Below, piece after piece: positions 6,001 through 23,765 of a DNA stretch of 64,000 bases. Where the stretch lies: the IMG/VR virus record IMGVR_UViG_3300046460_000418; one strand, written 5' to 3'. Under the pieces are notes generated by a model. That model saw nothing but the letters and a program-made list of their open reading frames with translations. It was not told the origin of the DNA and made no database searches. Both the position numbers and the translations under genes were made by a program. The first letter of the stretch is position 1. Every line of letters starts with the position of its first letter. This DNA comes from a virus. Its lineage: Duplodnaviria; Heunggongvirae; Uroviricota; Caudoviricetes.

Positions 6001-6236
6001 TCGTCTTCCCAATCCGATTTCATAGGAAGTTTTTCTGAAAACGCATCCCCGACGCTGCCGATGAAAAATGCTGTGATGTCCTTGGCTTGTGAGGGGTCGT
6101 CCGGGTTGTCAACGGGGGCGGAATCCGTCGTCAAGACCCTGTATCTGAAGTAAAACTGTCCTCCAGAGAAATCGGTAGCGGCTGCCTGCGTGGCAATCGC
6201 TGTCGCAAGGGTGATGGAAAGCAGTTTTTTCAACAT
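1..6236 (-). CDS. Giant secreted repetitive protein, paralog A (5' start in window at 6236, 3' end off-window; >2078 aa); signal peptide + conserved N-terminal module + tandem putative Ig-like/He_PIG-type repeats
   Basis: Reverse-complement of 6236 downward reads ATG TTG AAA AAA CTG... = MLKKLLSITLATAIATQAAATDFSGGQFYFRYRV..., closely parallel to the N-termini of the 6784-12576, 47787-54152 and 56555-64000 products (e.g. 'YAHTNSYSFNQVDIPVGSVDHW' vs 'YAHTGKYSFNALPIPNGITVDHW'). It is not in the ORF track because no stop lies inside the window. The frame is continuously open. Confidence 0.8.
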   Translation of the reverse strand, partial: MLKKLLSITLATAIATQAAATDFSGGQFYFRYRVLTTDSAPVDNPDDPSQAKDITAFFIGSVGDAFSEKLPMKSDWEDDNWQVVEGSLPGGISFDSSTLMFTGTPTTEEKAVVVEMRGYDTKGEAVASAEVTFDMYQLPSNRKQVDYYAHTNSYSFNQVDIPVGSVDHWLMLRPAPDGIQILGRNFDGTPTKAGAYPVLVEGFDYLDNAVAAIWGNFTVEDAPRFAKMVDKLVSLPNVGTTPPTSGTYHWSTSVSKILRPIASPDSVRYYVEVDPAYELPGTIVQNSDSHARNLTGDITEYNDQAKIRYRAVDSDGVNGYSDWFMIGSKAPKPRCSNPYPITWTINAFNSYQIPLALAGGSAKYEVTSGFSLPNGLTLDVTTGLISGAPTATGDTTVPITITLTTSGTQNSYSCGPFTISVVPAPVTLTINNLGNERVGRPFDATVVPGGALVAPYSVAIDDPASLPDGVTFDPTSGKITGSTTETGPFTATFIVTNGNGVRKKASKAFVVYKKLVADDIGLISVKRYNTSNMLAVASFDEMGVVPGAAGSVDYPITSLRGDLLPTGFGFDSQTRVLSGGTKLPVDKYGPFHIHLIDGSGDTTDGVADSNDFWIEVTDRDDMIANETVAPSFTVNFDEKTGKQPFSVTEPKLIQDLPLVYTINQSVPDGLIFDGTSGVITGRARKVETISGYKITVTDSEGYTKDSAEFAVTVKDPDQPAAKAMAPITKNVTGLIPSFLTTLPLDFSATEDTLIGGVTGVTYTDYSPVIGGLTYSNGILSGNPTQEFDGMVSLNFTDGAGRPGSAKVHLTILPYPMVTTEQPSYNLPRLSDADDLQIKGKTNTGYFGGVTFALSPSSKALPKGLSPVNGQIVGSTNVSKGAFPGIVIRATDKTTGIWDDTDPFPINVTDQAAMAFALPQHELTFQVTPDDSGSYTLAKKGVFVPAPKPTGSYVKPLIFSIDDPHPSWVGINPQTGELTGTPTRLGTEHVTIRVSDSDTIPSSKIDDVAIKTTLSGFVIPTAKAQLKTVRVGESFKTLNPFTTSNAVGSVTLDSSSVLPDTVTFDAADGYFHGNVDTAGSMNWAINGIDEDQRGFAAPATVAVNVIDALKLQLDTPLYEATQYSAEQPVNITFKPADNVIGQVSYKVVGELPGTLFYKENGVWNHFNADNSVETVTQISDLPSDALVFDTTTLTLRGIPSKSGTFDSAYLLAIDDHKNTYNDASRDATNVASVGFTINVAPVADLTVSKSVETEAIQQFTSKPVGKITVTGAAYGKPLTWEKISESLPQGISVVAETAGLTFDGYPTEKGVFAGAIYRATDALGRHIDTPAIAITVGDRGALTLTPSVNPKPMIVNTGDADMTITATNTAFGKPVTWTLAPSEVAKLPVGVTYAIKDANLHFSGVSSVRGSYKNILVHAVDDLGEPQDVEIAFSVYQDGDPITLSPGAQELTVRTGETFDTALQTPTGTIGAPVYNLNVDPLPADFSFNANTGVLHGQVPTTGTYTFAMNLEDTAQRLMDEPVRLKVTVKPALSIVAPIGSFVAKQFSAAEPISISFQGASDVIGTANYQLTGTFPGTYYIKQSTGWVHPLPAGGQQVVSNPSDLAPDALVFDPAALTLEGIPSKSGIFDDIKLIATDDHEDKYTTPSDPTRVDANRAETSPITITVAAADALTVANMVAGTETNAESLYQYQTQTSASTVVNHAAYGRAVSWTKVSGTLPVDISNIVGANSITYAGYPSVISTSNVVWKATDAAGREITSTPLSFTVLARKPLAVLPSSNPKGVIVSQNVDLLVTAGDPAYGLPVTWTVSGTLPPNVTYTIDDAGVHFSGIPNIVQKYTGIVVTAKDAVNATASASLTINVLSPADAIVLNVSNVTTKVGFGYKMEPPFAATALSTSNTYGKLKFSSTDLASVSGLGLDRDTGAIQGTAAATGKFTFSLSVSDETLTRLTAKSVVVEVIPNLKIVAPTQVTVTQGASTPVTVDTSNNIGTVTYKKGAGTWPDGIEVDQNNGTISGTPTGSPSTFANLTITGTDGIGDIQNSNVFSIVVKPIEAVPQISNIASNKMTFGTVGVQAVSFT

Positions 6237-6547: not shown

Positions 6548-6622
6548 TGGCCACGTAGCTCAGTGGGAGAGCGCCGCACTGTCGATGCGGAAGTCGGGGC
6601 TCCAATCCTCCTCGTGGCCGCC
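6548..6622 (+). tRNA. tRNA-Asp(GTC)-like element with encoded CCA; T-arm is non-canonical (possible pseudo-tRNA / degenerate copy)
   Basis: Cloverleaf read by eye. Acceptor GGCCACG / CGTGGCC is a perfect 7 bp. D-arm is GCTC-AGTGGGA-GAGC. Anticodon arm is CCGCA-CTGTCGA-TGCGG (5 bp perfect, anticodon GTC). Discriminator G + CCA at 6619-6622. The T-arm GGGGC-TCCAATC-CTCCT has a C:C mismatch and lacks the TTC of the T-loop in either register, which looks like a single indel. Confidence 0.5.
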
Positions 6623-6738
6623 ATTTCCTTTGTAAATTGGTTGAAGGCGCTCCGCTCGTTCAACGAAGCGAAATTGAACGACCTGCTTGCTCAGATGGAA
6701 GAGTTGTAAAGCCCACCATTATTGACGGAATAAGTTCG

Positions 6739-6783: not shown

Positions 6784-9700
6784 TTACCAACTGAAGACGA
6801 ACGTACCAGTTGCCGCCGAGGTCAAGCTGAACGTGCCCGCCGTTTTCCAAGCCAGTCCATCCATCGATGACTCGACCCGGACCGACGACAACTTTCCGCT
6901 CGTCGATGAACTCGAATGACCGAGGTACAGCCGCCGAATATCGACAGGTTGGATGAACTGTACATTGGCTATCGAACTACCAATCGTCGCACCATAATTC
7001 GATGAACTGCCCGCACCTATCGACGAGCTGATGGACACAATGTTGCTCGTCATCGTTTTCGCGGAAACAAGGGCAGCGTCGCGAAGATCGAGACGACTGA
7101 AACCTACGCTGCCTGTCGGCGTTGTGAACCGGGAGACAGCGATGACGCGCCAGTATGTCGCTCCTTCCACCTGTTTGGTAACGCGAACTGTATAGGACTG
7201 CGTCGCGGTAACGGTCTCGTCACCATCCTGGAACCTTGCGGTGACCGTGAACGATTGGTCGACAAAGTCTGCTCCGTCCGGGATCGCAACCTGCTCAAGT
7301 GGCTCCGTCAACACACCGTCCTGGATCGTTGCCAGGTTCAGGCCTGACACCGACCATGTCAAAGATGACAGGGAGATGTTTGTCGCATTCGCAAGCGGCT
7401 TGAAATCGAACTTCAGCGTGTCTGCCGTCGTTCCTTCAGGCATATCCGCCGTGGCCAGCTGCAATCCGACCTGAGGGGTTACAACGATCAGGCTGTAAAC
7501 CGCAGATGCCGTTCTCGACGGTCCCGTCACTGTTACACGGAAATTGTATGTGCCAGGCTCGGTCGCAACACCTGAGACGACACCGTTGCTGAGCGACAAA
7601 CCGGGGGGTAGCTTCGTTCCAGCAGTGTTCCACGTCCAGTTCAAGCCGCTTTCGCTAAACCCAATTGCTGTCATGTATTGTTTCAGGTCGAACGAATAAG
7701 TCTCAATTCGCTTGGTCGCCTGCTGCAATGGGCCGCTGTCCAGTGTCAGGTACAACGCTCCAGGCTCAACCCGGAACGTGATCGGGTCTGACCTGCCGGT
7801 ATCACCAAGACTGTCGGTGCTCGTGACGTAGACTGGACCGAACGTTCCAGAAGCCGTCGGCGTACCCTGGAACACACCTTTTGCCTCGTCAAAGGTCACT
7901 CCTGGCGGCAGGGCGCTGGCATTTTCCAGCTTCCAGTCCGCAGAGCCGACCACGAAGTTCCGGGTGATGAAGACATCATCCATTTCTTCCTGAGCCGTCG
8001 GTGCAATGATTGAGGGAGCGACGATCCGCATCAGAGGCAAGACATTGAGAGCCAGGGGCTTGGAAGTGACCCGGTTGGTCGTGTCGGTGATCGACAGGTT
8101 GACGGTGCGGTCCTGCGGGGTCGAGAACGATCCTGTAACAACCCCGGTATCCCGGTTCACAGAAAGGCTCGTGCCATCGAGGTCTAGCGAGTAGAGGTAA
8201 TAGTCGCCGAGCGTGTTGTCTATGAAAGGAACGGCTGTCGTGATCGGAAAGCCAACCTTCGTCGTCAGGGACTGAACTTCGAGTTCAATCGGGTCATCGT
8301 TCATGAAGACCGTAAAGAAGAACGGTGCGCTGTATCCGACGCCGGGAAGGTCGTCATGAACCGCAAGCCGAATTGGTCCAAATGCACCGACCTGCAGCGG
8401 CTTGCCGAGGAACTTGCCAGTTCCGGTTTCGAGGGACAGTCCCTTCGGGAGTTTCGATGGATCGACGATACTCCACGCAGGCTGACCGGAGATTGTCGTA
8501 ACCGATGGGTTCGGGCCATTGCTGTCCTTGTAGTCGTAGTTGTAAATCAGATCGCTTTCAGCTTGCATGCTGACTGTTATCGCTCCGAAAACCTGGATGT
8601 GGATGGTTTTCGAGGTCGAGCGGCCGGTCAGGTCGGAGATCGAGACAACAACGGAGGTGTTGAATGAATGGTCCGGAGTTCCTGCCAGCTGCCCGGTAAC
8701 GGGGTCGAAAGCAAGTCCGGTGTCCTCTGCGCCGGAAACAGACCATTCAATATCGCCAATGGTATTCTTGACGTCAGGGATGCCGGTCGTCAAAGGGAAG
8801 CCAATGCGGGCTTTGATCTCCGTTGGAACTTCCATGAGAATAGGAGAGCCATCCAGCTTGACGGTAAAGATGAAGTTCTTGGTCGTCGAAATGGCCTCAC
8901 CGTTATAGGTATCCGTCAGCTTAATGGTGATCGGTTCGGACGTTCCGAGTTCAGTGGCTGTTCCGACGATTGCACCAGTCTCGGATTGGAAGCTCAGTCC
9001 CGGAGGCAACAGCGAGGCGCTGGTGAGCATTTGCCAGGAGATATCCCCAACCGTACCGGTCTTCATCAGCTTTATAGCGTATAGTTTGCCCATGAGAGCT
9101 GTCTGCTCGCTCTTCGAGACGATTTGCGGCTGTGGGCGCTCGGAAATCGAGATCGAGAAGTAGCCGGTCGATGCCGTTTGCCCATCGAAGTCGTCGGTAA
9201 CGATAATCCGGTACCCCGAGGTCACTCCGCTCTCGATTGCGATGCCCTGGATGACGCCACTGCTAGAATTGAGCGTCAGGCCATCAGGCAGCGCCGTAGA
9301 ATCAGGTGCCATCGCATAGGAGAGCCTGCCGATCCTGTTTTCGACCGTCACCGACCCTTGCTTCTGCACAAACCGCTGGAACGGCATATCCTCTGGCGTT
9401 GATGCCTTGAGGTCGTCGACCACATGGAAGAGAACCGTGTTCTCGGCCGAACGGTTGAACAAGTCGGTGACTTTCGTTGCAACCTCGAAGTCGTCCACTT
9501 CGTAGAAGGCCGCAGTCAGTGTACCCGTTGTGGTGTTGATCAAAACGGTTCCAGGAAGGCTGCTATAGTCGCCTGACAAGGCAAAACTGTAGGGATCGAC
9601 CAGATTACCTGCGAGCGCCGGATATTCCTTCGCTGCGGCACCTCTGCGGACATTGTTGGTCTGGTCTGCAAGAGCCACAGAGCCGAACTTGGTGACCCTC

Positions 9701-12576
9701 AGGTTGAGAGTCAGCGTATAGTTTTCGCCGGTCAGCAGGTCTTCCCCGTAAATCACGATATCGTTGAAGTAGCCGGTCTGGGTCGCGGCTCCGTTGATCA
9801 TCCCCGCATAAATGCCGGTCGGAACCAGCTGGAGACCCGTGGGCAGCTTTCCGGATACGAGCGTGAACTTGAGATCGCCGACACGATTTTTAATGTCCGG
9901 TGCGAGGAAGGGCTCGCTGCGCTGGTAGTAGACTGTATCGCCGCTATAGCTGAACGAGAAGGTCAGCGGCGGTCCGACATGAATTGTGAAGGGTTCAGTC
10001 TTCTTGATATCGCCAGTCGTGTCGCTGACAACAATCCGGCTGACAAAATCGCCTTCAACGAGCGGCGTGCCATGAACTTGGCCTAGCTGGGCGTCAAACT
10101 TCATACCTTGCGGAAGAACAGAGTCTTCCTCAAGCGTGTAAGTGAACGGTCCGATGCCGTTATCCTTTACGGGCCTGACCTGGAGGGCTTTGCCGACATT
10201 GCCGTTGTACACCGCATCAGCCGTGAGCGCCAACGGTGGCTGAATATGGAAACTGATCGCACCGATTGCTGGAGCGCGGGCGGTATCGTCATCGACCGTG
10301 TAGTTGATCGTGAAGTCGCCAGCTTCTCTGAAGACGCCGTTGACATCGAAGTTATCAAGCGTAATGCCCCAGACATTGTCATCGAGCGCATAGCTAGTTG
10401 GGCCGAACCCATTGCTCACCTTGCCGATATTGAAGTCCTTGAACGAACGATCTGCCGACCAGGTAAACGACCGCGCCAGGTCGCCGTCCAGAGGGTCGAT
10501 GTCCCAAGGCTCGACAACGTGCAGATCGACGGCCAGATCGGCAGTGTACTTGTCTTCATCCGTTGCACGGATGGTGACGGGATAATGCGTACCGATTGGG
10601 TCCGTGGTGGTCCCCGTCAGAAGGCCGCGAACGGTATCAAAAGACAGCGTCGCCGGTATCTTTCCATCGATGATCTTGAAGCTGGCCTTGCCCACACCGT
10701 TGGCGGCTTCGAGGATAGTCGACTTATTGCCGACATAGCGCTGGACACGGTCCTCAAGTAGCGTCAGGGCTATTGGAGCCCGGTCTACGACCGAAATCGT
10801 GAAGGGCTCGGAGACAATCGGTTGATCAAAACCATCCGTCAGACGGACCTGGAAAGTACCCAGATCAGCGATGTCTTTTTGCTCCTTCGGCGTTCCTGAG
10901 AATGTGCCGCTGCGCTCGTCGAATTTCATCCAGGAAGGCAAGGTTCCCTGGACCAGTTCGAATTTTGACGGATCGCGCATGCTCATTGGAGCAATGGTCG
11001 GCCTCACATAGGCTGCGGTGGTTCGCACAAGATCGTAATGAGGTTCGTAGGCAATCGAGAGATCATTGTAGATGCGAATGATCTGGTAGTTATTTTCGAT
11101 CTGACCAACCGCGTTCTGAACGGTCAATTGCTGATCGTATACGCCCGGCTCATCAATACCTTCGGACGAGTAGGTGCCCGTGTTCAGGTCGAAGGAAATT
11201 CTTTTGTCATGGACGTTGGAAGCGTAATTCATCGGCGCAAGAAAACCTTCGGTGACGGAAGGTGGCTTGGTGATAAATGGCTTATTGACCCGCTGATGCA
11301 TGGCCTCCAGATCAACGATCAGTTCATTCGGAAGGACCGTAAATTTAAACGGGTTCGATTGAACAGGATCGATGCCGCTGCCAGAAACCCGGACGATAAT
11401 GTCATTGAACTCCGATGGTGTCGTTGGTGTGCCGCTGATCTTGCCCGTCGTCGGATCGAGCTTGATACCGTTGGGCAACTGGCCCTGGGCGATTTCCCAA
11501 AGCAGCGACACACCTTGAACGCCAGGTGAAAACGACTGGCGGAAGTCTTTGGCGACTGTCGCCCTCAGATCGGGGATATTCGAAAGAGACAAGACGGCGG
11601 GCGTTGTGGTGAGTGCGAAGATATTCGACCGACCTGTCCGGCCATCTGCACTGTCACGGGCCTCGATCTGAAATTTTGCACTCGTATCATAGGCGTCGAA
11701 CACACCGCTGATTTCGCCCTTGTCAGTCGTGAAACCAATGCCGGTCGGTCGGAAGGTTACCGGAACGAGCCGGAACGAAAGTGTTCCAATCTTATGAGGG
11801 ACTTTCGGCGTTACCGCGAAGTCATCACCTTCATTTTTGTCTGCGATCTGATCCTTGATGTCTCGAACGGACGGGCCATCTTCGACCACGAACTGACCGT
11901 AGGTGAAGGCGACTTCACGGTTGAGGTAGTCAAAGCCACGCCATGCGACTGCGTAGTTCCCGGCGGTGCTGGGCGTCCCCTCGAATGCACCGACGCGAGT
12001 TTGCATGCCTTCGGGATTATTCGTGACCGCATCCCAACGAGTAACGGTGACACCTGCGGGGGTCGGTATCTGGGAGAAGAAGTAGCGGCCGGTGTGGTCG
12101 TAGATGTCAATCTGCTGGACATTGCCAGCCGTCTCGAACGTTTCGAAGAAAATCTTGGCGCGGGCTATACGGGTGCCAGATGCGTCAAAGCCATAGTACA
12201 ACGCGTCCTTTTCCTGTTCAGCAGTGGGCTTGCCCTCAAGAAATCCCGAATTGTCTAGCCGAATGCCATCTGGAATGTCGCCCGTTCCCTTTACCCAACG
12301 AACGACATCGCGGGTAGCAACGGGAACTTCGCGGGAAAAATCGTATCCTACAGGGGCAACGAAATAGGCGTCGATATTGTTGCCGATACCATATTGGGTG
12401 GGATCATCAGGATCGCTGGTTCCCGGTTGGCCCGGACCCGCCGGGTCTGAACCGCCCGGAGCGTAATTGATCAAGCCCGTCTTGTATCGATAAATGTATT
12501 CGTTTGACGCGGACGCCGTCAGTGGCGAAAGCGCCAAAGAAGATGCGACCAAAATCGAAAGCAATTTTTTCAACAT
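6784..12576 (-). CDS. Giant secreted repetitive protein, paralog B (1930 aa): Sec signal peptide, conserved N-terminal module, tandem He_PIG-like Ig/cadherin-like repeats, C-terminal discoidin (F5/8 type C)-like domain
   Basis: N-terminus MLKKLLSILVASSLALSPLTASA is a Sec signal. Repeats carry the motif 'LPNGIKLDPTTGKISGTPT', 'LPTGLQLVPTGIYAGMINGAAT', 'FDPVTGQLAGTPDHSFN'. C-terminus has '...YWRVIAVSRF...SSVRVESSMDGLAWKTAG...' resembling the discoidin / galactose-binding fold. RBS-like GAGATAATCT lies before the ATG. Confidence 0.9.
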   Translation of the reverse strand: MLKKLLSILVASSLALSPLTASASNEYIYRYKTGLINYAPGGSDPAGPGQPGTSDPDDPTQYGIGNNIDAYFVAPVGYDFSREVPVATRDVVRWVKGTGDIPDGIRLDNSGFLEGKPTAEQEKDALYYGFDASGTRIARAKIFFETFETAGNVQQIDIYDHTGRYFFSQIPTPAGVTVTRWDAVTNNPEGMQTRVGAFEGTPSTAGNYAVAWRGFDYLNREVAFTYGQFVVEDGPSVRDIKDQIADKNEGDDFAVTPKVPHKIGTLSFRLVPVTFRPTGIGFTTDKGEISGVFDAYDTSAKFQIEARDSADGRTGRSNIFALTTTPAVLSLSNIPDLRATVAKDFRQSFSPGVQGVSLLWEIAQGQLPNGIKLDPTTGKISGTPTTPSEFNDIIVRVSGSGIDPVQSNPFKFTVLPNELIVDLEAMHQRVNKPFITKPPSVTEGFLAPMNYASNVHDKRISFDLNTGTYSSEGIDEPGVYDQQLTVQNAVGQIENNYQIIRIYNDLSIAYEPHYDLVRTTAAYVRPTIAPMSMRDPSKFELVQGTLPSWMKFDERSGTFSGTPKEQKDIADLGTFQVRLTDGFDQPIVSEPFTISVVDRAPIALTLLEDRVQRYVGNKSTILEAANGVGKASFKIIDGKIPATLSFDTVRGLLTGTTTDPIGTHYPVTIRATDEDKYTADLAVDLHVVEPWDIDPLDGDLARSFTWSADRSFKDFNIGKVSNGFGPTSYALDDNVWGITLDNFDVNGVFREAGDFTINYTVDDDTARAPAIGAISFHIQPPLALTADAVYNGNVGKALQVRPVKDNGIGPFTYTLEEDSVLPQGMKFDAQLGQVHGTPLVEGDFVSRIVVSDTTGDIKKTEPFTIHVGPPLTFSFSYSGDTVYYQRSEPFLAPDIKNRVGDLKFTLVSGKLPTGLQLVPTGIYAGMINGAATQTGYFNDIVIYGEDLLTGENYTLTLNLRVTKFGSVALADQTNNVRRGAAAKEYPALAGNLVDPYSFALSGDYSSLPGTVLINTTTGTLTAAFYEVDDFEVATKVTDLFNRSAENTVLFHVVDDLKASTPEDMPFQRFVQKQGSVTVENRIGRLSYAMAPDSTALPDGLTLNSSSGVIQGIAIESGVTSGYRIIVTDDFDGQTASTGYFSISISERPQPQIVSKSEQTALMGKLYAIKLMKTGTVGDISWQMLTSASLLPPGLSFQSETGAIVGTATELGTSEPITIKLTDTYNGEAISTTKNFIFTVKLDGSPILMEVPTEIKARIGFPLTTGIPDVKNTIGDIEWSVSGAEDTGLAFDPVTGQLAGTPDHSFNTSVVVSISDLTGRSTSKTIHIQVFGAITVSMQAESDLIYNYDYKDSNGPNPSVTTISGQPAWSIVDPSKLPKGLSLETGTGKFLGKPLQVGAFGPIRLAVHDDLPGVGYSAPFFFTVFMNDDPIELEVQSLTTKVGFPITTAVPFIDNTLGDYYLYSLDLDGTSLSVNRDTGVVTGSFSTPQDRTVNLSITDTTNRVTSKPLALNVLPLMRIVAPSIIAPTAQEEMDDVFITRNFVVGSADWKLENASALPPGVTFDEAKGVFQGTPTASGTFGPVYVTSTDSLGDTGRSDPITFRVEPGALYLTLDSGPLQQATKRIETYSFDLKQYMTAIGFSESGLNWTWNTAGTKLPPGLSLSNGVVSGVATEPGTYNFRVTVTGPSRTASAVYSLIVVTPQVGLQLATADMPEGTTADTLKFDFKPLANATNISLSSLTWSVSGLNLATIQDGVLTEPLEQVAIPDGADFVDQSFTVTARFQDGDETVTATQSYTVRVTKQVEGATYWRVIAVSRFTTPTGSVGFSRLDLRDAALVSAKTMTSNIVSISSSIGAGSSSNYGATIGSSIANVQFIQPVDIRRLYLGHSSSSTSGKLSSVRVESSMDGLAWKTAGTFSLTSAATGTFVFSW

Positions 12577-12761: not shown

Positions 12762-12947
12762 ATGACGCCCTTAACGCAGGAGTTTCACAAGGAAATCGCC
12801 GACGGTCGGGGAATTAGAATACAACAGGTCGACTTCGACGACCTGGCCGGTGTGATGGCAACCATCGTCGACACCTATCCTTCGAACCGAATGACCCAAG
12901 CGATCAAAGCATCGCTTGAACGCTGGGCATCGGGCCCATCAATCTGA
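12762..12947 (+). pseudogene. C-terminal remnant (~60 aa) of a sixth member of the P-family (see 13010-18453)
   Basis: Translation '...DDLAGVMATIVDTYPSNRMTQAIKASLERWASGPSI' aligns to the P1 C-terminus 'DEVAGTMQEMLPHLARKDLKQEKGVRAAIGRWNLRPTDLTASGPRI' (D[DE][LV]AG[VT]M..., RW..., ASGP[RS]I-COOH). There is no N-terminal body. It lies in the 430-nt gap between gene B and P1. Confidence 0.5.
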
Positions 12948-13009
12948 GATCAGCTTGTCGCTTACGCAATTTGACCTAAAGATGAACTGTGCAGGCAAGA
13001 GAGAATATC

Positions 13010-14113
13010 GTGACAACGATCCAATATCCCATCCCATATGAGCTGAGTGCCAAATTCGGCAAGAACAGAACTCATAAACCAATCGTCATCGCAGACACAC
13101 TTGAATGCGATATCAAGGATGTGGCGGCAACCGAGACACAGGTTGCGGTATCGGCCGCAATGACATGGGCAACCGGCGGTTTGCCGGGGCAGGGACCAGA
13201 TGGATTCTCGGTTCACGGATACCCGGTCGTCAATGACAGGAACCCAAAGGTCGACATTCGCCTCTACAACGAAAGCTTTTATGCGCCGGTCATGAAGTTT
13301 TCACTGCTCAACGAAGATGCAGGTCAAAGCGCCCGGCCCATCGACCTGCAGGACCCCGTCAACAATCAGTTCGCGCTCGCGACCCCCTTTTCGAGACCAT
13401 ACGAAAATTTGCCCCATCAGCTGAGACTCGATCTCGAAAGGCAGTCGCTTGGACGTATCCACCGGTATGAAGACTCGCAGATCAAGGAAGTAGCCGAGGT
13501 CGGCAATTCAAGAGACGCCATCGTTGAAATGGCGCAGGAACAATTGGCGGAATTCATCGCAATTGAAGGCGTGCTGTGGCAAAGGTTGATTGCAGAGCCT
13601 CGCATACGATATCAGCGACAGCTCGTCCTCGACGGCGACGATCAGCTGAGAGGTGTCATGGTTTTCGAACTGGCTGCAAACCAAACCAAGGTTGCTCACG
13701 CTTTCCACTCTGGTATTTTCAACATCAACCGATTGCAGGATGCTGTCGAGCATATCAACGACCACTTTCCTGACCACGAGCACATCTTCCTGTTCGATGG
13801 GCTCGATGTCAAAATCGAAGACGCTTTCACTCTCTCCGAAGAGGCCGATGCTTTGACGGAAAGTGCGATGAAAGTTGTTCGGGATCTGTCAAAATACCGG
13901 GAGTATCTGGTCCCTGAGCTTCTTGAGGCAGTAAACCGGTTGAATTGGCTGGTCCTCAACGACAAAGACCTGGATGAGGTTGCTGGAACCATGCAAGAGA
14001 TGCTGCCACACCTTGCAAGGAAAGACCTGAAGCAGGAAAAAGGCGTTCGAGCAGCGATTGGGCGTTGGAATCTGAGGCCGACTGATCTGACCGCATCAGG
14101 TCCCAGAATTTAG
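13010..14113 (+). CDS. P-family paralog 1 (uncharacterised ~365-aa protein; first gene of a 5-gene tandem paralog operon)
   Basis: GTG at 13010 preceded by AAGAGAG gives MTTIQYPIPYEL, matching the M-[TA]-x-V-x-[YF]-P-x-P-Y starts of the other four paralogs. Shared motifs: FEGxFYAP, W[AS]TPFxxPY, IEGxLWxxLxxEPxxRY, F[RT]LDRxxDCxDH, FDDE and the C-terminal RWNLRP...GPRI. The track start at 12989 is an upstream in-frame GTG. Confidence 0.8.
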   Translation: MTTIQYPIPYELSAKFGKNRTHKPIVIADTLECDIKDVAATETQVAVSAAMTWATGGLPGQGPDGFSVHGYPVVNDRNPKVDIRLYNESFYAPVMKFSLLNEDAGQSARPIDLQDPVNNQFALATPFSRPYENLPHQLRLDLERQSLGRIHRYEDSQIKEVAEVGNSRDAIVEMAQEQLAEFIAIEGVLWQRLIAEPRIRYQRQLVLDGDDQLRGVMVFELAANQTKVAHAFHSGIFNINRLQDAVEHINDHFPDHEHIFLFDGLDVKIEDAFTLSEEADALTESAMKVVRDLSKYREYLVPELLEAVNRLNWLVLNDKDLDEVAGTMQEMLPHLARKDLKQEKGVRAAIGRWNLRPTDLTASGPRI

Positions 14114-14123
14114 GAGCCCGACC

Positions 14124-15197
14124 ATGACTAACGTTAAGTACCCTCTTCCTTATGCTCTCTACGCCGTTTGGGGTTCATTTCGAAAGCCCAACACAATTCG
14201 GATATCAGATGAGGTAAACCTCGATATCCGAGAGGCAAGAGAGGATGAAGCTCCGATAGTAATGAAGTGCCGGACAGCCTGGCCGACGTCGAGCCTGCCA
14301 GGGCAAGAGGCTGATGACGATGGTCATCGCCATTTGATCAACCCGCAGGCTGAGTTCCGTTTCTTCGAAGGGGCTTTTTATGCGCCACTGATGATTTTCA
14401 AGAAGGTAAGGATTGGACCGGCTGAGTTCGTCACGCCCGCAGATTTCGAACGTCTCGAAACGGACGGCCACCTTTGGGCAACCCCGTTTTCGACCCCATA
14501 CTCGTCCCACGTTTTCGCAAGGAACCTGCTGATCGACCATGACAACGGCCTGCTGCCGAGCCTCGCCCAAGCCAAACTGCGCGAAATCCATTCAAAGGGC
14601 GACCCAAGGGAAATGGCCCTTGAAGCAGCGAAATCCGACCTGCACAACTGCCTGATCGTCGATAACAGGGCTTATCGGCGTTTGGCTGAAGAACCCGTGC
14701 TCCGCTATCGGGTCTCTTCGGGCAGGGCGACGGTTACACTCGAAGAGAAGGTCGATCCCTTCCGGCTTCGCTACGACAATTCCGGATACTTCAGGCTCGA
14801 CCGCTTCGACGACTGCATCGACCACCTCTCTGCGACATATCCAGAGGCGGAAATCTTCCTGAATGTCGACAAGATCACCTTTGACCCTGATATCCAGCTG
14901 AAGTTCGACGATGAAGCCTTGTCCATGTTGATTCTGGCCACCGATCTTGAAGACAAACTTCGTTTCCACGGGGATTGCGGCGCAGAGTTGGAAGCCCTCA
15001 AGTCAAAGCTTTCGGCTTATGGTGACCTGCCCTTCTCGGAGCAGTTTGCCAAGGCCGAGGACATCTCTGGCGTGGTCGAGCGCATACTCGATCTCGCTGG
15101 ACCTGACCTTGATATCCCACCGGAAATGCGCTCGGACCTTCGTCGTTGGAACTTGCGGCCAGTCGAGGCAGGATTGTCCGCATCGCCTGGAATATAA
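14124..15197 (+). CDS. P-family paralog 2 (357 aa)
   Basis: ATG with GGAG 7 nt upstream, 10 nt after the P1 stop. Carries all family motifs (FEGAFYAPLMIF, WATPFSTPY, FRLDRFDDCIDHL, FDDEALS, ...RRWNLRPVEAGLSASPGI). Confidence 0.85.
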   Translation: MTNVKYPLPYALYAVWGSFRKPNTIRISDEVNLDIREAREDEAPIVMKCRTAWPTSSLPGQEADDDGHRHLINPQAEFRFFEGAFYAPLMIFKKVRIGPAEFVTPADFERLETDGHLWATPFSTPYSSHVFARNLLIDHDNGLLPSLAQAKLREIHSKGDPREMALEAAKSDLHNCLIVDNRAYRRLAEEPVLRYRVSSGRATVTLEEKVDPFRLRYDNSGYFRLDRFDDCIDHLSATYPEAEIFLNVDKITFDPDIQLKFDDEALSMLILATDLEDKLRFHGDCGAELEALKSKLSAYGDLPFSEQFAKAEDISGVVERILDLAGPDLDIPPEMRSDLRRWNLRPVEAGLSASPGI

Positions 15198-15208
15198 GAG
15201 CCGCTGCC

Positions 15209-16231
15209 ATGACAAATGTCATCTTCCCCGTCCCCTACAAAGTCGACGCGGTCTTCGACAAGTTTCGCAATCCCCGTGAAATCGAGATTGCCGATCACGC
15301 GACACTTGAGATCAGAGATGTGTCCAAACTGGATGCGCCGGTTCTCGTGTCCCTGCAGGCCTCCTACCATAACCACAGATACGATCTGGAGGCTTCATAC
15401 GACAGCTACCCGAGGACTGAATTGAGAATGTTCGAGGGTGAGTGGTACGCCCCACTCCTGCGATTTCCAAAGGATGGTGAGATGCGGGCTGTAACCCCAG
15501 ATGACTTCTCGGAATATTTTTCGCCCGAAGCCCTCTGGTCAACCGTCGTGAATTCAACCGGCTATGCTGCGGACGGCCCGGAATCGCGGATTCGTCGCCA
15601 GCAGGCGGGGCGATTCCCGACGCTCGAAGAGGCCAAGCTTCGCAAGGTAGAGAAGCTCGATGAAAAGCGGGAAGAGGCGAAGGCCTGGGCACGGAAAGAG
15701 CTTGAAAACTTCATCAATGTCGAAGGAACAGTCTACGAGAAGCTCAAGGGCGAGCCCGCGCTCCAATACTGGAAGATCGGCGCGGATAGTGCCGTCGTTC
15801 TGAACATCAGTATCGGACGTACATTCAGCCGAGACGATGTCGGCTACTTCACGCTCGACCGGCTCGATGACTGCCTTGAGCATATCGGCAATCTCTTCCC
15901 AGGCCGGAAGTTGATGCGCCAATTCGGTGATATTCAGATCGAAAATGGGGTCGAGTTTACTTATGACGACGAAGGAATGGCAATTCGAGGTGCCCTCAGC
16001 GATGTGAAGTCGGCCCTGTTCTGGGAACGAAACCTTGATGAAGGTTTGCTGGAATTAAAAACCCGCGTTGACGCATTCAACGAGGAACAAGGCGAAGACC
16101 TCGACTCTATCGCCGACCTTGTCCAGGAATTCGTTCAACGAACCAAGCCGGATTTCAAGAAGCGCGATGCTGTTGTTGCAGCCATCACGCGTTGGGAAAT
16201 GCGCCCGATGGACACAGGTTTCAGGATTTAA
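15209..16231 (+). CDS. P-family paralog 3 (340 aa)
   Basis: ATG at 15209 gives MTNVIFPVPYKV, 11 nt after the P2 stop. The longer track ORF from 15146 overlaps P2 and is not supported by paralog alignment. Motifs present: FEGEWYAPLL, FTLDRLDDCLEHI, YDDEGMA, ...TRWEMRPMDTGFRI. Confidence 0.85.
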   Translation: MTNVIFPVPYKVDAVFDKFRNPREIEIADHATLEIRDVSKLDAPVLVSLQASYHNHRYDLEASYDSYPRTELRMFEGEWYAPLLRFPKDGEMRAVTPDDFSEYFSPEALWSTVVNSTGYAADGPESRIRRQQAGRFPTLEEAKLRKVEKLDEKREEAKAWARKELENFINVEGTVYEKLKGEPALQYWKIGADSAVVLNISIGRTFSRDDVGYFTLDRLDDCLEHIGNLFPGRKLMRQFGDIQIENGVEFTYDDEGMAIRGALSDVKSALFWERNLDEGLLELKTRVDAFNEEQGEDLDSIADLVQEFVQRTKPDFKKRDAVVAAITRWEMRPMDTGFRI

Positions 16232-16233
16232 GC

Positions 16234-17313
16234 ATGGCTCAGGTTACATATCCCATCCCTTACTTGGTGAGGGCAACCCTAAACGGCCAGCGGCGCATGG
16301 TCGACGTGGCTGACGAGATCGGCCGGGAAATCCGCGACGTTGAAGACCTCGATGCTCCAGTGGTTCTTATGTGCAAGCTCAACAGCCCAAGCCGCAATAT
16401 TCATGAGCCCGTCTGCGACCGGCCCGCAGTGTTCCGGTCTTTCGAGGGAAAGATTTACGCGCCGTGCATGGTGGTCTCAAAAGCCTTTGAAGCCGTCGAA
16501 CAGAGGCAGCTTGTACCGACTGACATCGCCAATCTGGCTCAGCAGGAATTTTACTGGTCTACCCCCTTCGACAAGCAGTATCCGCACCAGGCAAATCAGG
16601 GCGGTAACTTGTCTCTCCCGGCAGAGCGGCTGAGAAAATACCAGGTGGGTGAACTCCCTCGTCTTGACCAGCTGCCAGTCCGCAACAGCCGGACCGGAAG
16701 CGACGGTCGATCTGCGGCCATTGCGGCTGCCGAGGCAGACTTGGCAAAATATATCTCCATCGAAGGAAAACTGTGGCGGCAGACGCTTGAGCCGGTCATT
16801 CGCTATATGCGTTTTACCCAAGGCACCACCCTGATCTATCTGGCCGAGAACAAAGACATTCTGGAGCAAACGGAGGCTCGGGGTGCGTTCAGGATCGACC
16901 GAATGCAGGATTGTCTGGACCATGTGGCGGCCTTCACGACATCTCAGTCAGGTAAACCTGATGCCTACCTATTCCATGTCGCCGACATCGTCGTTGAGGA
17001 TTCCAGCGCGTTCACATTCGATGATGAGAAGGATAGCATCCTCAGGCTTTCGAACCGACTCTATGACCACCTATTCTACCAAGCGATCATGCATGAAGAC
17101 ACCATGACGCCCGATCAGCGCACTTCAATTCTCGTGATGAAGGACGCAATGGAAAGACGATCCGATGAAGATGTCGAGAAACTGGCGGAGATCATTCGCG
17201 ACTTCTCGAACGACTGGCCAGTTCCCACCTTCCCGTTGCCAGCTGATGTGCCGCTGCTACTGGAACGATGGGACCTACGCCCGGCCGGTCAGAACGCCGG
17301 AATGAAAATTTAA
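16234..17313 (+). CDS. P-family paralog 4 (359 aa)
   Basis: ATG at 16234 gives MAQVTYPIPYLV, 2 nt after the P3 stop. Motifs present: FEGKIYAPCM, WSTPFDKQYP, FRIDRMQDCLDHV, FDDEKDS, ...ERWDLRPAGQNAGMKI. Confidence 0.85.
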   Translation: MAQVTYPIPYLVRATLNGQRRMVDVADEIGREIRDVEDLDAPVVLMCKLNSPSRNIHEPVCDRPAVFRSFEGKIYAPCMVVSKAFEAVEQRQLVPTDIANLAQQEFYWSTPFDKQYPHQANQGGNLSLPAERLRKYQVGELPRLDQLPVRNSRTGSDGRSAAIAAAEADLAKYISIEGKLWRQTLEPVIRYMRFTQGTTLIYLAENKDILEQTEARGAFRIDRMQDCLDHVAAFTTSQSGKPDAYLFHVADIVVEDSSAFTFDDEKDSILRLSNRLYDHLFYQAIMHEDTMTPDQRTSILVMKDAMERRSDEDVEKLAEIIRDFSNDWPVPTFPLPADVPLLLERWDLRPAGQNAGMKI

Positions 17314-17322
17314 GGACCAAAA

Positions 17323-18453
17323 ATGGCCGACGTAATTTATCCAGTACCCTATTCGATCATCGCGCAGGTTGGCCGCAAATCGAAGTTCGAGCGCTATGAA
17401 ATCTCCGACGAGATGAGGGTCACTATCCCGACGGTCGAAGCAGACGCTGCACCAATCGTTATTTCACTGGACAAGGTATGGCCGTTGCGAGGGCTGCAGG
17501 GTCAGCCTCCGGAGCGCTGGAACCGGGCTGACGATTTGCAAGCCTGCATTGCCGCCAATCCGACCGTGAAGCTGCGCCAGCATGAGGGGCGTTTCTTTGC
17601 GCAAATGATGATTTTTGGAAAAGAAAACTATATCGGCGAGCCCAGGTGGGCGAAGCCACTGGACCTTGCTGATATCGGTGATCACCGGGTTGTCTGGGCG
17701 AACGGATTCCAGCGGCCCTACGATTACCATACTACGCGCTCAAACAGCTGGGAATCCGACACCGAGTTGCATTTGCATCATCGCGACGGCGGCCTGATGT
17801 GGACCGGAGACAAGAAGATCAAGGCATTGGAGGCGGGCCAGGAGAACCGGCGATCCGAGGCTTTTGAGAAGGCCGCTGCTGATGCCCTGGCCTATCTTGA
17901 AATCGATGGCCATCTCTGGCGGGCAATCGATGGTGAACCGGTTTTCAAGTATCGTATCCAGAACGGCGCGATTGAGATCGAGATCACCGATGACCACTAT
18001 CTCAACAGCTCGGTCGAGCAAGGTGTCTTCCGGCTAGACCGTCACCAGGATTGCCTGGACCATATCCGGGAGATTACTGCAGCCCTTTGTTATCCTGAAT
18101 GGCCCATCATGGAGGGTTTTGACAATCTGCAGATCAGTCCGGCATGTGAACTGGCGTTCGACGACGAAGCTGCAACGCTGCTCGCAATGGCACATGCCAC
18201 GGTCCTCAAGATGGAGCGCTTCATGAAGGGAGTAGGCTTGCAGCAGACGCCTGCCGAAATGCAGAAGGTCTACAAGAAGCTGTTCGATCTGATGGGGCCT
18301 GGATATGAAGGCCGGGTCGACGAAATCAGTGAGACCCTTGAAAATAGCCGCAGCGTTTGGCCGCACGAAAACTACGAAGCTTCCGGGATAGGCCTTGCCC
18401 TCAATCGCTGGAACATGCGGCCGGTTGCAGAAAGTGACGCCTTCAAAATTTAG
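17323..18453 (+). CDS. P-family paralog 5 (376 aa)
   Basis: AAGGACC RBS + ATG, 9 nt after the P4 stop. MADVIYPVPYSI. Motifs present: HEGRFFAQMM, FRLDRHQDCLDHI, FDDEAAT, ...NRWNMRPVAESDAFKI. Confidence 0.85.
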   Translation: MADVIYPVPYSIIAQVGRKSKFERYEISDEMRVTIPTVEADAAPIVISLDKVWPLRGLQGQPPERWNRADDLQACIAANPTVKLRQHEGRFFAQMMIFGKENYIGEPRWAKPLDLADIGDHRVVWANGFQRPYDYHTTRSNSWESDTELHLHHRDGGLMWTGDKKIKALEAGQENRRSEAFEKAAADALAYLEIDGHLWRAIDGEPVFKYRIQNGAIEIEITDDHYLNSSVEQGVFRLDRHQDCLDHIREITAALCYPEWPIMEGFDNLQISPACELAFDDEAATLLAMAHATVLKMERFMKGVGLQQTPAEMQKVYKKLFDLMGPGYEGRVDEISETLENSRSVWPHENYEASGIGLALNRWNMRPVAESDAFKI

Positions 18454-18513: not shown

Positions 18514-19098
18514 ATGGATATTCGCTGGCACAAAAACCCGCTGCGGACCACCTACGCGCTGACAGATGATGAAAAGGCGACCTTCCGGCTGAAGGTTCGC
18601 CTGGAATTGCTCGAAGAAGCCATGTCCGATGCTGTATTCCACCTGGATGTGAACGAGAGCCGCCAGTATCACGACCCACATGTGGCTCTCCAGCGGCTTC
18701 AGGCGGCGATGCCAGACGATGACGACAAAGAACCGGCCAGGGTTCAACAACAATACGAAATGCTGCTCCACGAGCTTGAAAACGGCTGCCATCACGGTGA
18801 CTGCACATGCTTCAGTGCATCTTGCGCCAAATGCCGCGCGGAGCAGATTCTCGGATGCGACAGCATCGAAGGACTGGGAAAACATTCCGCTCGACAAGTC
18901 GACGGGTCATTCGGACCGGAATGCGAACGCAGCCTCGATGAGGCCATCGAAAGACTTGCAGCCTACGAGCCGGTGCGAAGCGGCTCATGGCTAAATTATC
19001 CGGAGGAGGATTTCGCGGCTTATGTACCTGGATGGAAGGCGCAAGCTAAGGCAGCCCATGAATGGCTGGTTGCTTATCGCGCCGCCCATTTCTCGTAA
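18514..19098 (+). CDS. Hypothetical protein (194 aa) with a Cys/His cluster (CHHGDCTCFSASCAKCRAEQILGC); possibly the last gene of the P operon
   Basis: GAGGA RBS 8 nt before the ATG, 60 nt after the P5 stop, same strand. No recognisable family. Confidence 0.6.
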   Translation: MDIRWHKNPLRTTYALTDDEKATFRLKVRLELLEEAMSDAVFHLDVNESRQYHDPHVALQRLQAAMPDDDDKEPARVQQQYEMLLHELENGCHHGDCTCFSASCAKCRAEQILGCDSIEGLGKHSARQVDGSFGPECERSLDEAIERLAAYEPVRSGSWLNYPEEDFAAYVPGWKAQAKAAHEWLVAYRAAHFS

Positions 19099-19101
19099 CA
19101 G

Positions 19102-19455
19102 TTAGAAAACGGGATTAACCTGCGTGTTCAGGAGCGCAACGAAGTGCTCAGCGAGAGCCCGGTCGATCAACATGACGTGCTGTTCTTCAACCTTTGGATC
19201 ATCCGTGTCGGAATAGCGTGTCACCTTCTTCACGATCCAGACCTGCCGCATAGCGGTGCTCTTTTCCCACACGCGCCATTCGGTTTTCGCGCCGGTTTCG
19301 CAGTAGGTCGAAGTTGCCGAAAGAAACTTTCGCTCGGTATCGTCGAGTTCAGTCGACAAGGCGCAGGCGATTTCAATCAGTTCGCGCTCCGACTTGCCAT
19401 GCAAAGCAATGGAGCCAACCTGTTTGAGAGATTCGCGAATTGGACGGATTTCCAT
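19102..19455 (-). CDS. Hypothetical protein (~117 aa)
   Basis: ORF with internal ATG at 19455 (MEIRPIRESL...) and an AAGGCAGAG-like RBS. Convergent with the P operon. No family recognised. Confidence 0.4.
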   Translation of the reverse strand: MEIRPIRESLKQVGSIALHGKSERELIEIACALSTELDDTERKFLSATSTYCETGAKTEWRVWEKSTAMRQVWIVKKVTRYSDTDDPKVEEQHVMLIDRALAEHFVALLNTQVNPVF

Positions 19456-22187: not shown

Positions 22188-23765
22188 ATGTCTGAAGAAA
22201 CTGACTACCGGGCACCTTATCGCGGTCGCGTAACCATGGAAGTTTTTATCGCCCGGCAATTGGGATGGGGCGTTTACTTCGTCCGATTGGCAGACGGCCA
22301 GTGGAAACGTGTTCCTGTAGAAGATGACGTTTCCGACGAGAACACATATTCCATTTCCTTCGACGAACCGTCGGCTGAAGATCAAATCAGCTTGAACTCC
22401 CTCTTCACTAATGGTGGCATGCTCCCCGTTGATGCTTCATCGCTGGACCGCGTGCGCGGCTATGGGAAAGACCCTGAAAGCAAAATCACGCACTCTCGGT
22501 TCGAAGCCCAATTGGCGTCGATGAATGCGCAACTGTTCGACATGGATAAAGACGTTCGACAAAACCTGAGGGATCAGCTCGACAAGGCCGAGGAAGCAAT
22601 CCGAGACGAGGAAGATCAAGAGCGTACTCTAAATGCAGTCGAAAAAATGGTTCGCAGGGGCCTGGGTGCCGTTTCGTGCTATGACGGCCACGAAAGCTGC
22701 TGGTTTGAATTGAGGCCATTGACGCGAACTGACACCTCATTTGCTATGAAGACTACAAAGGCAAAGGAAGAAGTCGGGTACGAGACGATTTATCGTGGGT
22801 CCTATGACGAGTGCGGCCTTCTCGGACAAATTCCAATCAACGAAAAGGAAGTGTTTCTGCCGACCAGAAAGGCCTTCGAACAATTTGGCGTCGCCATCAC
22901 TGATAAAAGCATTGTTGCCCCGGAAAATCATCGTAAAATTCATGCTGACTGGCGCAGAGCAGGCTGGACCAAGATTGCTCGACAGCAAGATGTTCGCATT
23001 AATGTCGTACAGCGCGAGCCGAGACATTGGGGTGATGATGATGATAGGGAGCCTCTTCTTGGGTTTGAACTAGGTGACACAAGCATTGAGGGCGGTGCTG
23101 CATCCAATACCATTGCGGCATGGCGCGAAGGGGTCCAAGTTGAATTCTGGGGTGAATATTCGACGGCCCTGGACCCTTTTCAGGCTAACACATACGACCA
23201 CATCGACGGTCTCGTAAAGGACTTGCTAGCTGACGGTCGCTTTGTCACCGATTTCCGGCGTGTCGTGGGGCACTGTGCAACGGCAGCAGATATCCTTGCC
23301 AAACTGGACGAAGGAATGTTGCTGCAGGATGGACACAAACCGGTGTTGATGTTCCCGCGCGTCGATAACATCCATGGAGACCTTATCTCTGTTGATGGAC
23401 GCATTGCGCGAGGACTCATCAAGGAGAAAGAAATTATCATCGTCGATCAATTCAAGACTGATTACACGCACGTCTACATGTATGCTCGACCGGGAAGCGA
23501 TCTCGCCAAGAATGCACCGCCCGCTCCGAAGCCAAAGAAGAAGCGGGACCGCAGCAAGATTATCGCTCGGGATGACGACGGCGAGGCCATCACCATGAAC
23601 GATCTCAATTTTGAGAGTTACCAGCGACCGCTCGACGGATGGTCGTTCAACCTCGTTCCTTCATTTGAATTCGACGGTAGTGATGACGATTGGGATGATC
23701 TACAGCTGATCGAGCAGGTAAAGGAAAGACGTCGTCGGCTGAAAGTCGAAGCCGTCAAAGGCTGA
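22188..23765 (+). CDS. Hypothetical 525-aa protein with a strongly basic C-terminal region (KNAPPAPKPKKKRDRSKIIARDDDG ... KERRRRLK)
   Basis: AGGAAATTATCG-ATG start. Long clean ORF with no signal peptide and no recognised domain. NLS-like basic cluster near the C-terminus. Confidence 0.75.
   Translation: MSEETDYRAPYRGRVTMEVFIARQLGWGVYFVRLADGQWKRVPVEDDVSDENTYSISFDEPSAEDQISLNSLFTNGGMLPVDASSLDRVRGYGKDPESKITHSRFEAQLASMNAQLFDMDKDVRQNLRDQLDKAEEAIRDEEDQERTLNAVEKMVRRGLGAVSCYDGHESCWFELRPLTRTDTSFAMKTTKAKEEVGYETIYRGSYDECGLLGQIPINEKEVFLPTRKAFEQFGVAITDKSIVAPENHRKIHADWRRAGWTKIARQQDVRINVVQREPRHWGDDDDREPLLGFELGDTSIEGGAASNTIAAWREGVQVEFWGEYSTALDPFQANTYDHIDGLVKDLLADGRFVTDFRRVVGHCATAADILAKLDEGMLLQDGHKPVLMFPRVDNIHGDLISVDGRIARGLIKEKEIIIVDQFKTDYTHVYMYARPGSDLAKNAPPAPKPKKKRDRSKIIARDDDGEAITMNDLNFESYQRPLDGWSFNLVPSFEFDGSDDDWDDLQLIEQVKERRRRLKVEAVKG

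Follow-up and report, generated by a model that had tools for sequence, protein, structure and literature searches.

The DNA analyzed here is a stretch of 64,000 nucleotides from the IMG/VR virus record IMGVR_UViG_3300046460_000418 and is referred to, at its full length, as the window. It contains a tandem array of five plus-strand genes encoding diverged copies of one protein family, designated W1 to W5 (Table 1); loci of relatives are given as L-numbers (L001–L028) and single relative proteins as P-numbers. The original prediction had placed five consecutive genes 2–11 nt apart, and all of these open reading frames (ORFs) were found as described, with intergenic gaps from W1 to W5 of 10, 11, 2, and 9 nt. 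At three junctions, the stop codon runs into or directly adjoins the following Shine–Dalgarno sequence (TAGGAG, TAAGAG, and TAAGGA), which points to translational coupling of the array genes. Given these gaps and overlaps, the genes look not only co-transcribed, as had been predicted, but also translationally coupled. Promoter and terminator scans showed no enrichment over shuffled sequences. For W1, the GTG start at 13010 was preferred over an upstream GTG at 12989 because it agrees with the family N-terminus and with the gene call of the Joint Genome Institute (JGI) for an ortholog. No further family copies were found elsewhere in the window using a profile built from distant relatives.

The five proteins were compared pairwise using BLASTP, which gave scores of 81–157 bits (E values of 1e-20 to 6e-49), whereas shuffled sequences scored no higher than 27.7 bits over 30 rounds. 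The concern that the shared blocks are artefacts of composition is thus removed. The copies were alignable over their full length at 21–31% identity; the predicted homology is real, but the predicted identity of roughly 30–40% was too high. The signature blocks that had been listed for the family exist, but two of them, DCxDH and FDDE, are not invariant, as W1 has NRLQDAVEH and LSEE at these positions. W1 carries TQ in place of AP, N in place of D226, and SEE in place of DDE. The C-terminal [KR]I ending is present in the window copies, but it is restricted to this lineage and coincides with the stop codons that overlap the next Shine–Dalgarno sequence.

An alignment of 167 sequences identified the residues conserved throughout the family, namely P7, R79, E190-P191, F223, D226, R227, D230, and R341-W342-x-x-R345-P346. 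Charged residues are also conserved at D/E 261–263. From tail statistics, the RWxxRP motif lies 8–12 residues from the C-terminus. The conserved residues are drawn from all three structural parts of the protein described below.

Judged from profile similarity, the five copies are a divergent, peripheral clade of the Pfam family PF27633 (DUF8359). As the PF27633 model was missing from our local Pfam copy, only precomputed marks on orthologs were used. In L002 and L003, the W4 ortholog carried a plain mark (E at most 1e-5), the marks on the W2 and W3 orthologs were weak, and the W1 and W5 orthologs carried none, which sets the window clade at the periphery of DUF8359. A hidden Markov model (A4), built from 13 distant relatives (10 of them shown with PF27633 marks) and no window sequence, matched each of W1–W5 at E values of 1e-16 to 5e-26. 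Conversely, a profile of the five copies recovered PF27633-marked proteins across most of their length, so that the similarity to firm PF27633 proteins is full-length. The architecture is also shared, with the P-x-x-Y strand, EP, FRxDRxDD, and RWxxRP about 10 residues from the end; the acidic blocks are partly lost in W1. DUF8359 proteins resemble the window copies in their length of approximately 320–380 amino acids (aa) and in the blocks x-P-x-x-Y, APV, DGxxW, EP, FRxDRxDD, DDE, and RWxxRP.

The family is rare. A word-indexed search found 14 relatives among 5.8 billion proteins, and an exhaustive search found 144 among 1.84 billion cluster representatives (E ≤ 1e-3), nearly all of 300–400 aa. 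In agreement with its description as uncharacterised, W1–W5 matched nothing in the local Pfam, NCBIfam, PHROGs, and PADLOC libraries, and none of the profile searches placed the copies in a well-characterised housekeeping family. Matches to PHROGs were at chance level only, and no PADLOC-DB model was matched by any of the five copies at E values up to 1. Remote homology to a family in the local Pfam-A copy was rejected, as no weak match recurred among 35 aligned family members at E values up to 5. The literature search retrieved no paper mentioning DUF8359 and nothing useful on He_PIG, and the cluster look-up gave no protein names for the family members. Two genome-collection scans found no relative, which is weak evidence of absence because only one to six peptide patterns were usable.

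Each array gene encodes an acidic, soluble protein of approximately 40 kDa. The products W1–W5 have isoelectric points (pI) of 4.9–5.2 and are hydrophilic (grand average of hydropathy of −0.36 to −0.55), and all 162 of the full-length family members are acidic (pI 4.5–6.4, median 5.2). No export signal was seen on the array proteins, for which no signal-peptide or transmembrane predictor was run. W2 was modelled by AlphaFold2 from a 35-sequence alignment with a predicted local distance difference test (pLDDT) score of 92.6 and a predicted template modelling score of 0.89; a second model reached a pLDDT of 92.8. The W2 model comprises N-terminal beta-hairpins (residues 1–120, beginning with a beta-strand at residues 2–16), a central alpha/beta part (130–255), and a C-terminal five-helix bundle (263–343). 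The N-terminal hairpin and central alpha/beta parts had no counterpart among solved structures, and the fold, as predicted, is without a solved counterpart. A Foldseek search of BFVD gave no match at E values up to 0.001. Structure comparison and the Pfam scan revealed no recognisable catalytic fold or motif. The original prediction had equally allowed for an enzyme active site at DCxDH and FDDE; charged residues are conserved in the family, but these two blocks vary.

Orthologs from different genomes were 33–92% identical, compared with 21–31% for paralogs within a genome. The orthologous groups were supported at 84–100% in a bootstrapped neighbour-joining tree, and the gene order was the same in the window, L001, L002, and L008. 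Thus, the copies had already been duplicated before the lineages of the window, L001, and L008 separated. The arrays differ in their members, as a sixth paralog type (type A) was lost in the window lineage, the W2 and W3 types are missing from L001 and L008, and L008 has an extra W5-related copy. The window and L002–L004 contain the same five genes and the same relic of type A. The ratio of nonsynonymous to synonymous substitution rates (dN/dS), calculated for each copy between the window and L002, ranged from 0.05 to 0.15, which indicates purifying selection on every copy.

L008 and L009 provide a natural control. They are 96.4% identical over the giant gene, the array, and a 113-aa gene. Directly 3′ of the array lies a hotspot (L008 12575–13535 and L009 12595–13119), which holds Ntox16 and 167-aa genes in one of the two loci and a Colicin_D-domain gene in the other; the flanks are 90–96% identical. 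This toxin cassette is separate from the array and lies on the opposite strand. The array remained unchanged while the adjoining cassette was exchanged, and it is thus conservative. As the paralogs are old, colinear, and constrained, the array is, from these comparisons, ancient and vertically inherited, and the idea that it was diversified in situ found no support, since its duplications are old and close relatives share the same content.

The predicted C-terminal remnant of a sixth copy upstream of W1 is real. Positions 12816–12941, approximately 45 C-terminal codons and the only recognisable part of this segment, matched residues 307–348 of P0023 in a tblastn search (E value of 3e-11, 50% identity). 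Proteins of the P0023 type, i.e., type A, are encoded by the first gene of the L008 and L001 arrays. The relic is only about 55–60% identical at the DNA level between the window and L002, with insertions and deletions, and it is therefore a decaying pseudogene. Unlike the adjoining relic, the 65 nt directly 5′ of W1 are nearly identical in the window and L002; they contain a Shine–Dalgarno-like element (AGAGAG) and presumably serve as a leader or promoter-proximal region.

Table 1. Array genes and other features of the window, with dN/dS against L002, bootstrap support of the orthologous group, and identity to orthologs.
Feature	Position	Strand	Description	dN/dS	Bootstrap	Orthologs (identity)
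W1, type B	13010..14113	+	367 aa, GTG start	0.12	100%	L002_1 (82%), L001_2 (50%), L008_2 (41%)
W2, type C	14124..15197	+	357 aa; copy modelled by AlphaFold2; P0011 56% identical	0.07		L002_2 (84%); none in L001 or L008
W3, type D	15209..16231	+	340 aa	0.085		L002_3 (87%); none in L001 or L008
W4, type E	16234..17313	+	359 aa	0.15	84–100%	L002_4 (92%), L001_3 (64%), L008_3 (33%)
W5, type F	17323..18453	+	376 aa	0.05	98–100%	L002_5 (90%), L001_4 (49%), L008_5 (38%)
Relic of type A paralog	12762..12947	+	Pseudogene			
Putative leader / promoter-proximal region	12945..13009	+	AGAGAG element			
He_PIG2	6784..12576	-	Giant secreted protein with Ig-like repeats, 1930 aa; Pfam He_PIG, 8 stretches, E 4e-71			
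He_PIG giant	3..6236	-				
He_PIG giant	47787..54152	-				
He_PIG giant	56555..64000	-				
tRNA-Asp(GTC)	6549..6623		53.6 bits			
194-aa gene	18514..19098	-				
117-aa gene	19105..19455	-				
525-aa ORFan	22188..23765					
1047-aa helicase gene	28262..31405		SNF2/DEAD-like			

Comparison of the neighbourhoods of relatives showed that the array size varies from 1 to about 10 copies. Independent duplications were identified in L022–L025 (2–3 copies), L013, L014, L018, and L019 (2 copies each), L028 (7 copies in two blocks of 4 and 3), and L026 and L027 (at least nine very divergent copies), and single-copy members are found in L005, L010, and L021. Repeated amplification with long retention across clades is thus a property of the whole family. 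A flotillin-like gene is 61–64% identical to Rhizobium and Novosphingobium genes, and the L018 FliF shares about 50% identity with that of Azospirillum, both of which point to Alphaproteobacteria. Read together, these loci indicate that several alphaproteobacterial lineages independently evolved DUF8359 arrays, ranging from 2 to about 10 copies.

The most divergent run was observed in L026 (7461–20933), in which at least nine tandem, extremely divergent members follow a divergently oriented gene for a 644-aa secreted He_PIG and RCC1 protein. The run is interrupted by a gene for a 541-aa secreted protein, and in many of its copies a tail of the G-[LIM]-x-[LIM] type replaces RWxxRP and the tail after it. 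Members of the lineage with a neighbouring clpS gene (see below) begin with M-[LFI]-[FL]-R-[VL]-P.

The array is divergently adjacent to a giant adhesin-like gene, as had been described; this gene is He_PIG2, which encodes immunoglobulin (Ig)-like repeats and no toxin domain recognised by Pfam, and the arrangement recurs in other lineages. An ortholog of He_PIG2 (59% identity) is divergent to the array at the same position in L008, and a He_PIG gene also lies beside the L009 array. In L016, He_PIG2-like genes flank a distant family member on both sides. In L021, a He_PIG gene is located 2 kb upstream of P0156. The He_PIG gene of L026 is divergent to its array, and He_PIG adjacency was also observed in L027. 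The window has four He_PIG giants, all on the minus strand, which are paralogs of 1930 to more than 2481 aa with 24–39% identity and together occupy about 40% of the window. Sec-type signal peptides are present on at least two of them, namely those read at the N-terminus. Between two of the giants lies a tRNA-Asp(GTC) gene with an encoded CCA and an unusual T-loop. Neither this gene nor He_PIG2 is present in L002, where the He_PIG1 ortholog abuts the array, which corresponds to an insertion or deletion of about 6.3 kb. In L001 (GCA_900471375.1, 4612–7853), the He_PIG2 ortholog is broken into fragments beside a TnpB/Cas12f-like gene whose 631 aa exceed the usual length of TnpB.

In L022–L025 and L028, the conserved divergent neighbour is a stand-alone clpS gene (e.g., L022 9529–9855, minus strand) that lacks an adjacent clpA. 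The arrays of this lineage sit among housekeeping genes, clpS and tilS. A PP-loop gene 3′ of other arrays was rejected as a partner because it proved to be a short tilS; its product in L022 (12035–12709; also in L023 and L025) is only 224 aa, consists of the N-terminal catalytic domain alone, and is unusually short for TilS. The 194-aa, 117-aa, and 60-aa genes 3′ of the window array were also rejected as partners, as they are kept in close relatives only. The 194-aa and 117-aa proteins are conserved in L001 and L002 only and match no family, and the former carries a Cys/His cluster (C-H-H-x2-C-x-C-x4-C-x2-C). No other widely shared partner gene was found in the neighbourhoods compared.

Elsewhere in the window, the tract of 12600–47700 is rich in ORFans, with 26 of 28 scanned ORFs lacking a Pfam match. 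It includes a 525-aa ORFan, which has no Pfam or PDB match and shares 51% identity with a gene located about 4 kb from the L010 family member; it is far more conserved between the window and L010 than the family members themselves. The 1047-aa helicase has five helicase-associated (HA) domains, and its best plasmid matches, from actinomycete and Cupriavidus plasmids, are about 27% identical.

Reasoning by analogy, we tentatively suggest that the array products may come together in the cytoplasm as subunits of a multi-paralog assembly, perhaps linked to the giant surface proteins. The array genes would be transcribed from one promoter just upstream of W1 with coupled translation, and their products would act together in this single assembly, built as a mixed oligomer or as a polymer. 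Once duplicated, the copies would have specialised while remaining partly interchangeable, as in multi-flagellin or multi-pilin loci. The residues conserved in every clade (P7, R79, E190-P191, F223, and the RWxxRP motif), which come from the three protein parts, probably form one shared site, such as an interface or an anion-binding pocket, their spatial clustering being assumed. As arrays repeatedly lie beside He_PIG giants, the assembly may serve these surface proteins by helping to make, handle, or regulate them, and it would not depend on any single one. Varying copy number and loss of single types, as recorded by the type A relic, are the pattern expected of partly redundant subunits. For a putative physical association of the paralogs, the evidence is indirect and consists of the translational coupling, the colinear groups, and the purifying selection seen in the sequences.

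Several observations weigh against such an assembly. Variable copy number and the single-copy members of L005, L010, and L021 mean that no fixed stoichiometry is needed. No He_PIG gene was found within 10 kb of the family members in L005, L010, L018, L022–L025, and L028. He_PIG2 was lost in L002 and decayed in L001, and both arrays are intact. Furthermore, He_PIG giants are so common, with four in the window, that adjacency may partly be due to chance. The He_PIG and ClpS links are associations only. It is distinctly unlikely, in our judgment, that DUF8359 represents a new-fold cytoplasmic machine of Alphaproteobacteria coupled to He_PIG giants in handling, quality control, or export priming, with ClpS, the conserved divergent partner in one lineage, hinting at regulated proteolysis; any tie between the ClpS neighbour and the recognition of N-degrons is purely speculative. 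A set of enzymes or binders that differ in specificity would fit the pattern equally or nearly as well.

Such a repertoire, in which each paralog is an enzyme or ligand binder acting on its own related substrate, e.g., by modifying, folding, or targeting one He_PIG protein before export, is considered unlikely as a specific explanation. The active or binding site would then be made up of the conserved charged residues. It would account for the conservation of these residues (R79, E190, D226, R227, D230, D/E 261–263, R341, and R345) in different parts of the protein, for the presence of several giants alongside several paralogs, for the recurrence of He_PIG genes beside members in divergent lineages, and for the tolerated loss of one paralog type. 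However, no known catalytic fold or motif was recognised, and the W1-type copies lack D226 and the DDE block and yet are under purifying selection. For many arrays, the nearest 10 kb contain no He_PIG gene, and the array outlasts the loss of He_PIG2. The giants also carry Sec signal peptides, and nothing links a cytoplasmic modification to them. The original prediction had named a diversified repertoire of effector or immunity-like proteins or of substrates of a dedicated machinery. Such a repertoire, whether of effector, immunity, or anti-toxin proteins or of secretion substrates, would have been amplified in conflict with competitors or phages. Tandem amplification to strongly diverged copies in many lineages (up to about 10) and the acidity of the proteins are in line with it, as are the conserved motif at a fixed distance from the C-terminus, the toxin cassettes flanking the L008 and L009 arrays, and Endonuclease_NS genes a few kilobases from some arrays. 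The array orthologs of the window and L008 (33–41% identity) have also diverged faster than the neighbouring giant (59%). This explanation is very doubtful, however, because the orthologous groups have remained stable and colinear across deep divergence, dN/dS is low, close relatives have identical gene content, and the array was unchanged where the adjoining toxin cassette was swapped. No toxin partner, toxin domain, or secretion-system gene was found in the operon or among the scanned window ORFs, and PADLOC gave no match. As for polymorphic toxin systems, no toxin-domain gene shares the operon or immediately precedes it on its strand, and no rapid gain, loss, or replacement was seen among close relatives. 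In another lineage, the arrays sit between the housekeeping genes clpS and tilS. The proteins of 340–376 aa are also large for immunity proteins, as typical ones are two to three times smaller.

It is extremely improbable that the array is cargo of a mobile element, prophage, or plasmid, such as anti-defence or maintenance proteins on a genomic island. In its favour, the window is rich in ORFans and a low-scoring tRNA-Asp gene is close by, ProQ, AbiEii, HD, ERCC4, and TnpB-like genes occur in the vicinity of single-copy members, and PcfJ and ART-PolyVal genes are found near other arrays. However, tblastn searches found no relative among 50,697 phage and 72,556 plasmid records, DNA searches were likewise empty, and two viral contig scans and PHROGs yielded no relative either. 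Arrays are located on contigs of 0.8–1.4 Mb with synteny conserved among relatives, and no integrase or conjugation genes were seen beside the array. Taken together, the data on stability, colinearity, selection, and distribution disfavour both the conflict and the mobile-element explanations, and the cytoplasmic assembly is retained as a tentative interpretation.

Pfam already catalogues the family as a domain of unknown function (DUF), and thus only its biology, not its existence, would be new. If the interpretation is correct, a new-fold family has been amplified independently into long-lived arrays in several alphaproteobacterial lineages. Independent and long-lived amplification usually marks multi-subunit structures or specificity repertoires. 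To our knowledge, the making and handling of giant Ig-repeat surface proteins are poorly understood. The locus offers a compact, testable set of five genes and one promoter region, with natural variants of 1 to about 10 copies; one solved structure would add a new fold, and the partners could reveal a new cellular assembly. The locus also demonstrates that a tandem diverged array need not be an arms-race repertoire, since this one is ancient and conservative.

The locus is far from anything known, as no characterised protein resembles its products in sequence or structure and no known kind of system has this combination of features. The orphan immunity islands of Rhs, contact-dependent inhibition, and type VI secretion systems likewise consist of runs of diverged acidic cytoplasmic paralogs near genes for large secreted proteins, and real toxin cassettes do occur near the L008 and L009 arrays. 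In contrast to these islands, the array is divergent to the giant gene instead of following it, no toxin domain was recognised in the giant, and the array stays stable and colinear next to a true toxin cassette that turns over; its proteins are also two to three times larger than typical immunity proteins. The Asp1–3 proteins of the accessory Sec system for serine-rich repeat adhesins offer an analogy, as they are several cytoplasmic proteins without obvious enzymatic motifs encoded beside a giant repetitive surface-protein gene. However, no SecA2/SecY2 or glycosyltransferase gene was found in the scanned array neighbourhood, the array proteins have no homology to Asp proteins, and their association with the giants is neither found everywhere nor indispensable. 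The multi-flagellin and multi-pilin clusters differ in that the array proteins resemble flagellins and pilins neither in sequence nor in structure and show no export signal, and polymerisation of the array proteins is an analogy only. What the array has in common with these clusters, again as an analogy, are paralogs that lie in tandem in one orientation and agree in length and in their conserved termini, a varying copy number, conserved orthologous groups, partial redundancy, and purifying selection.

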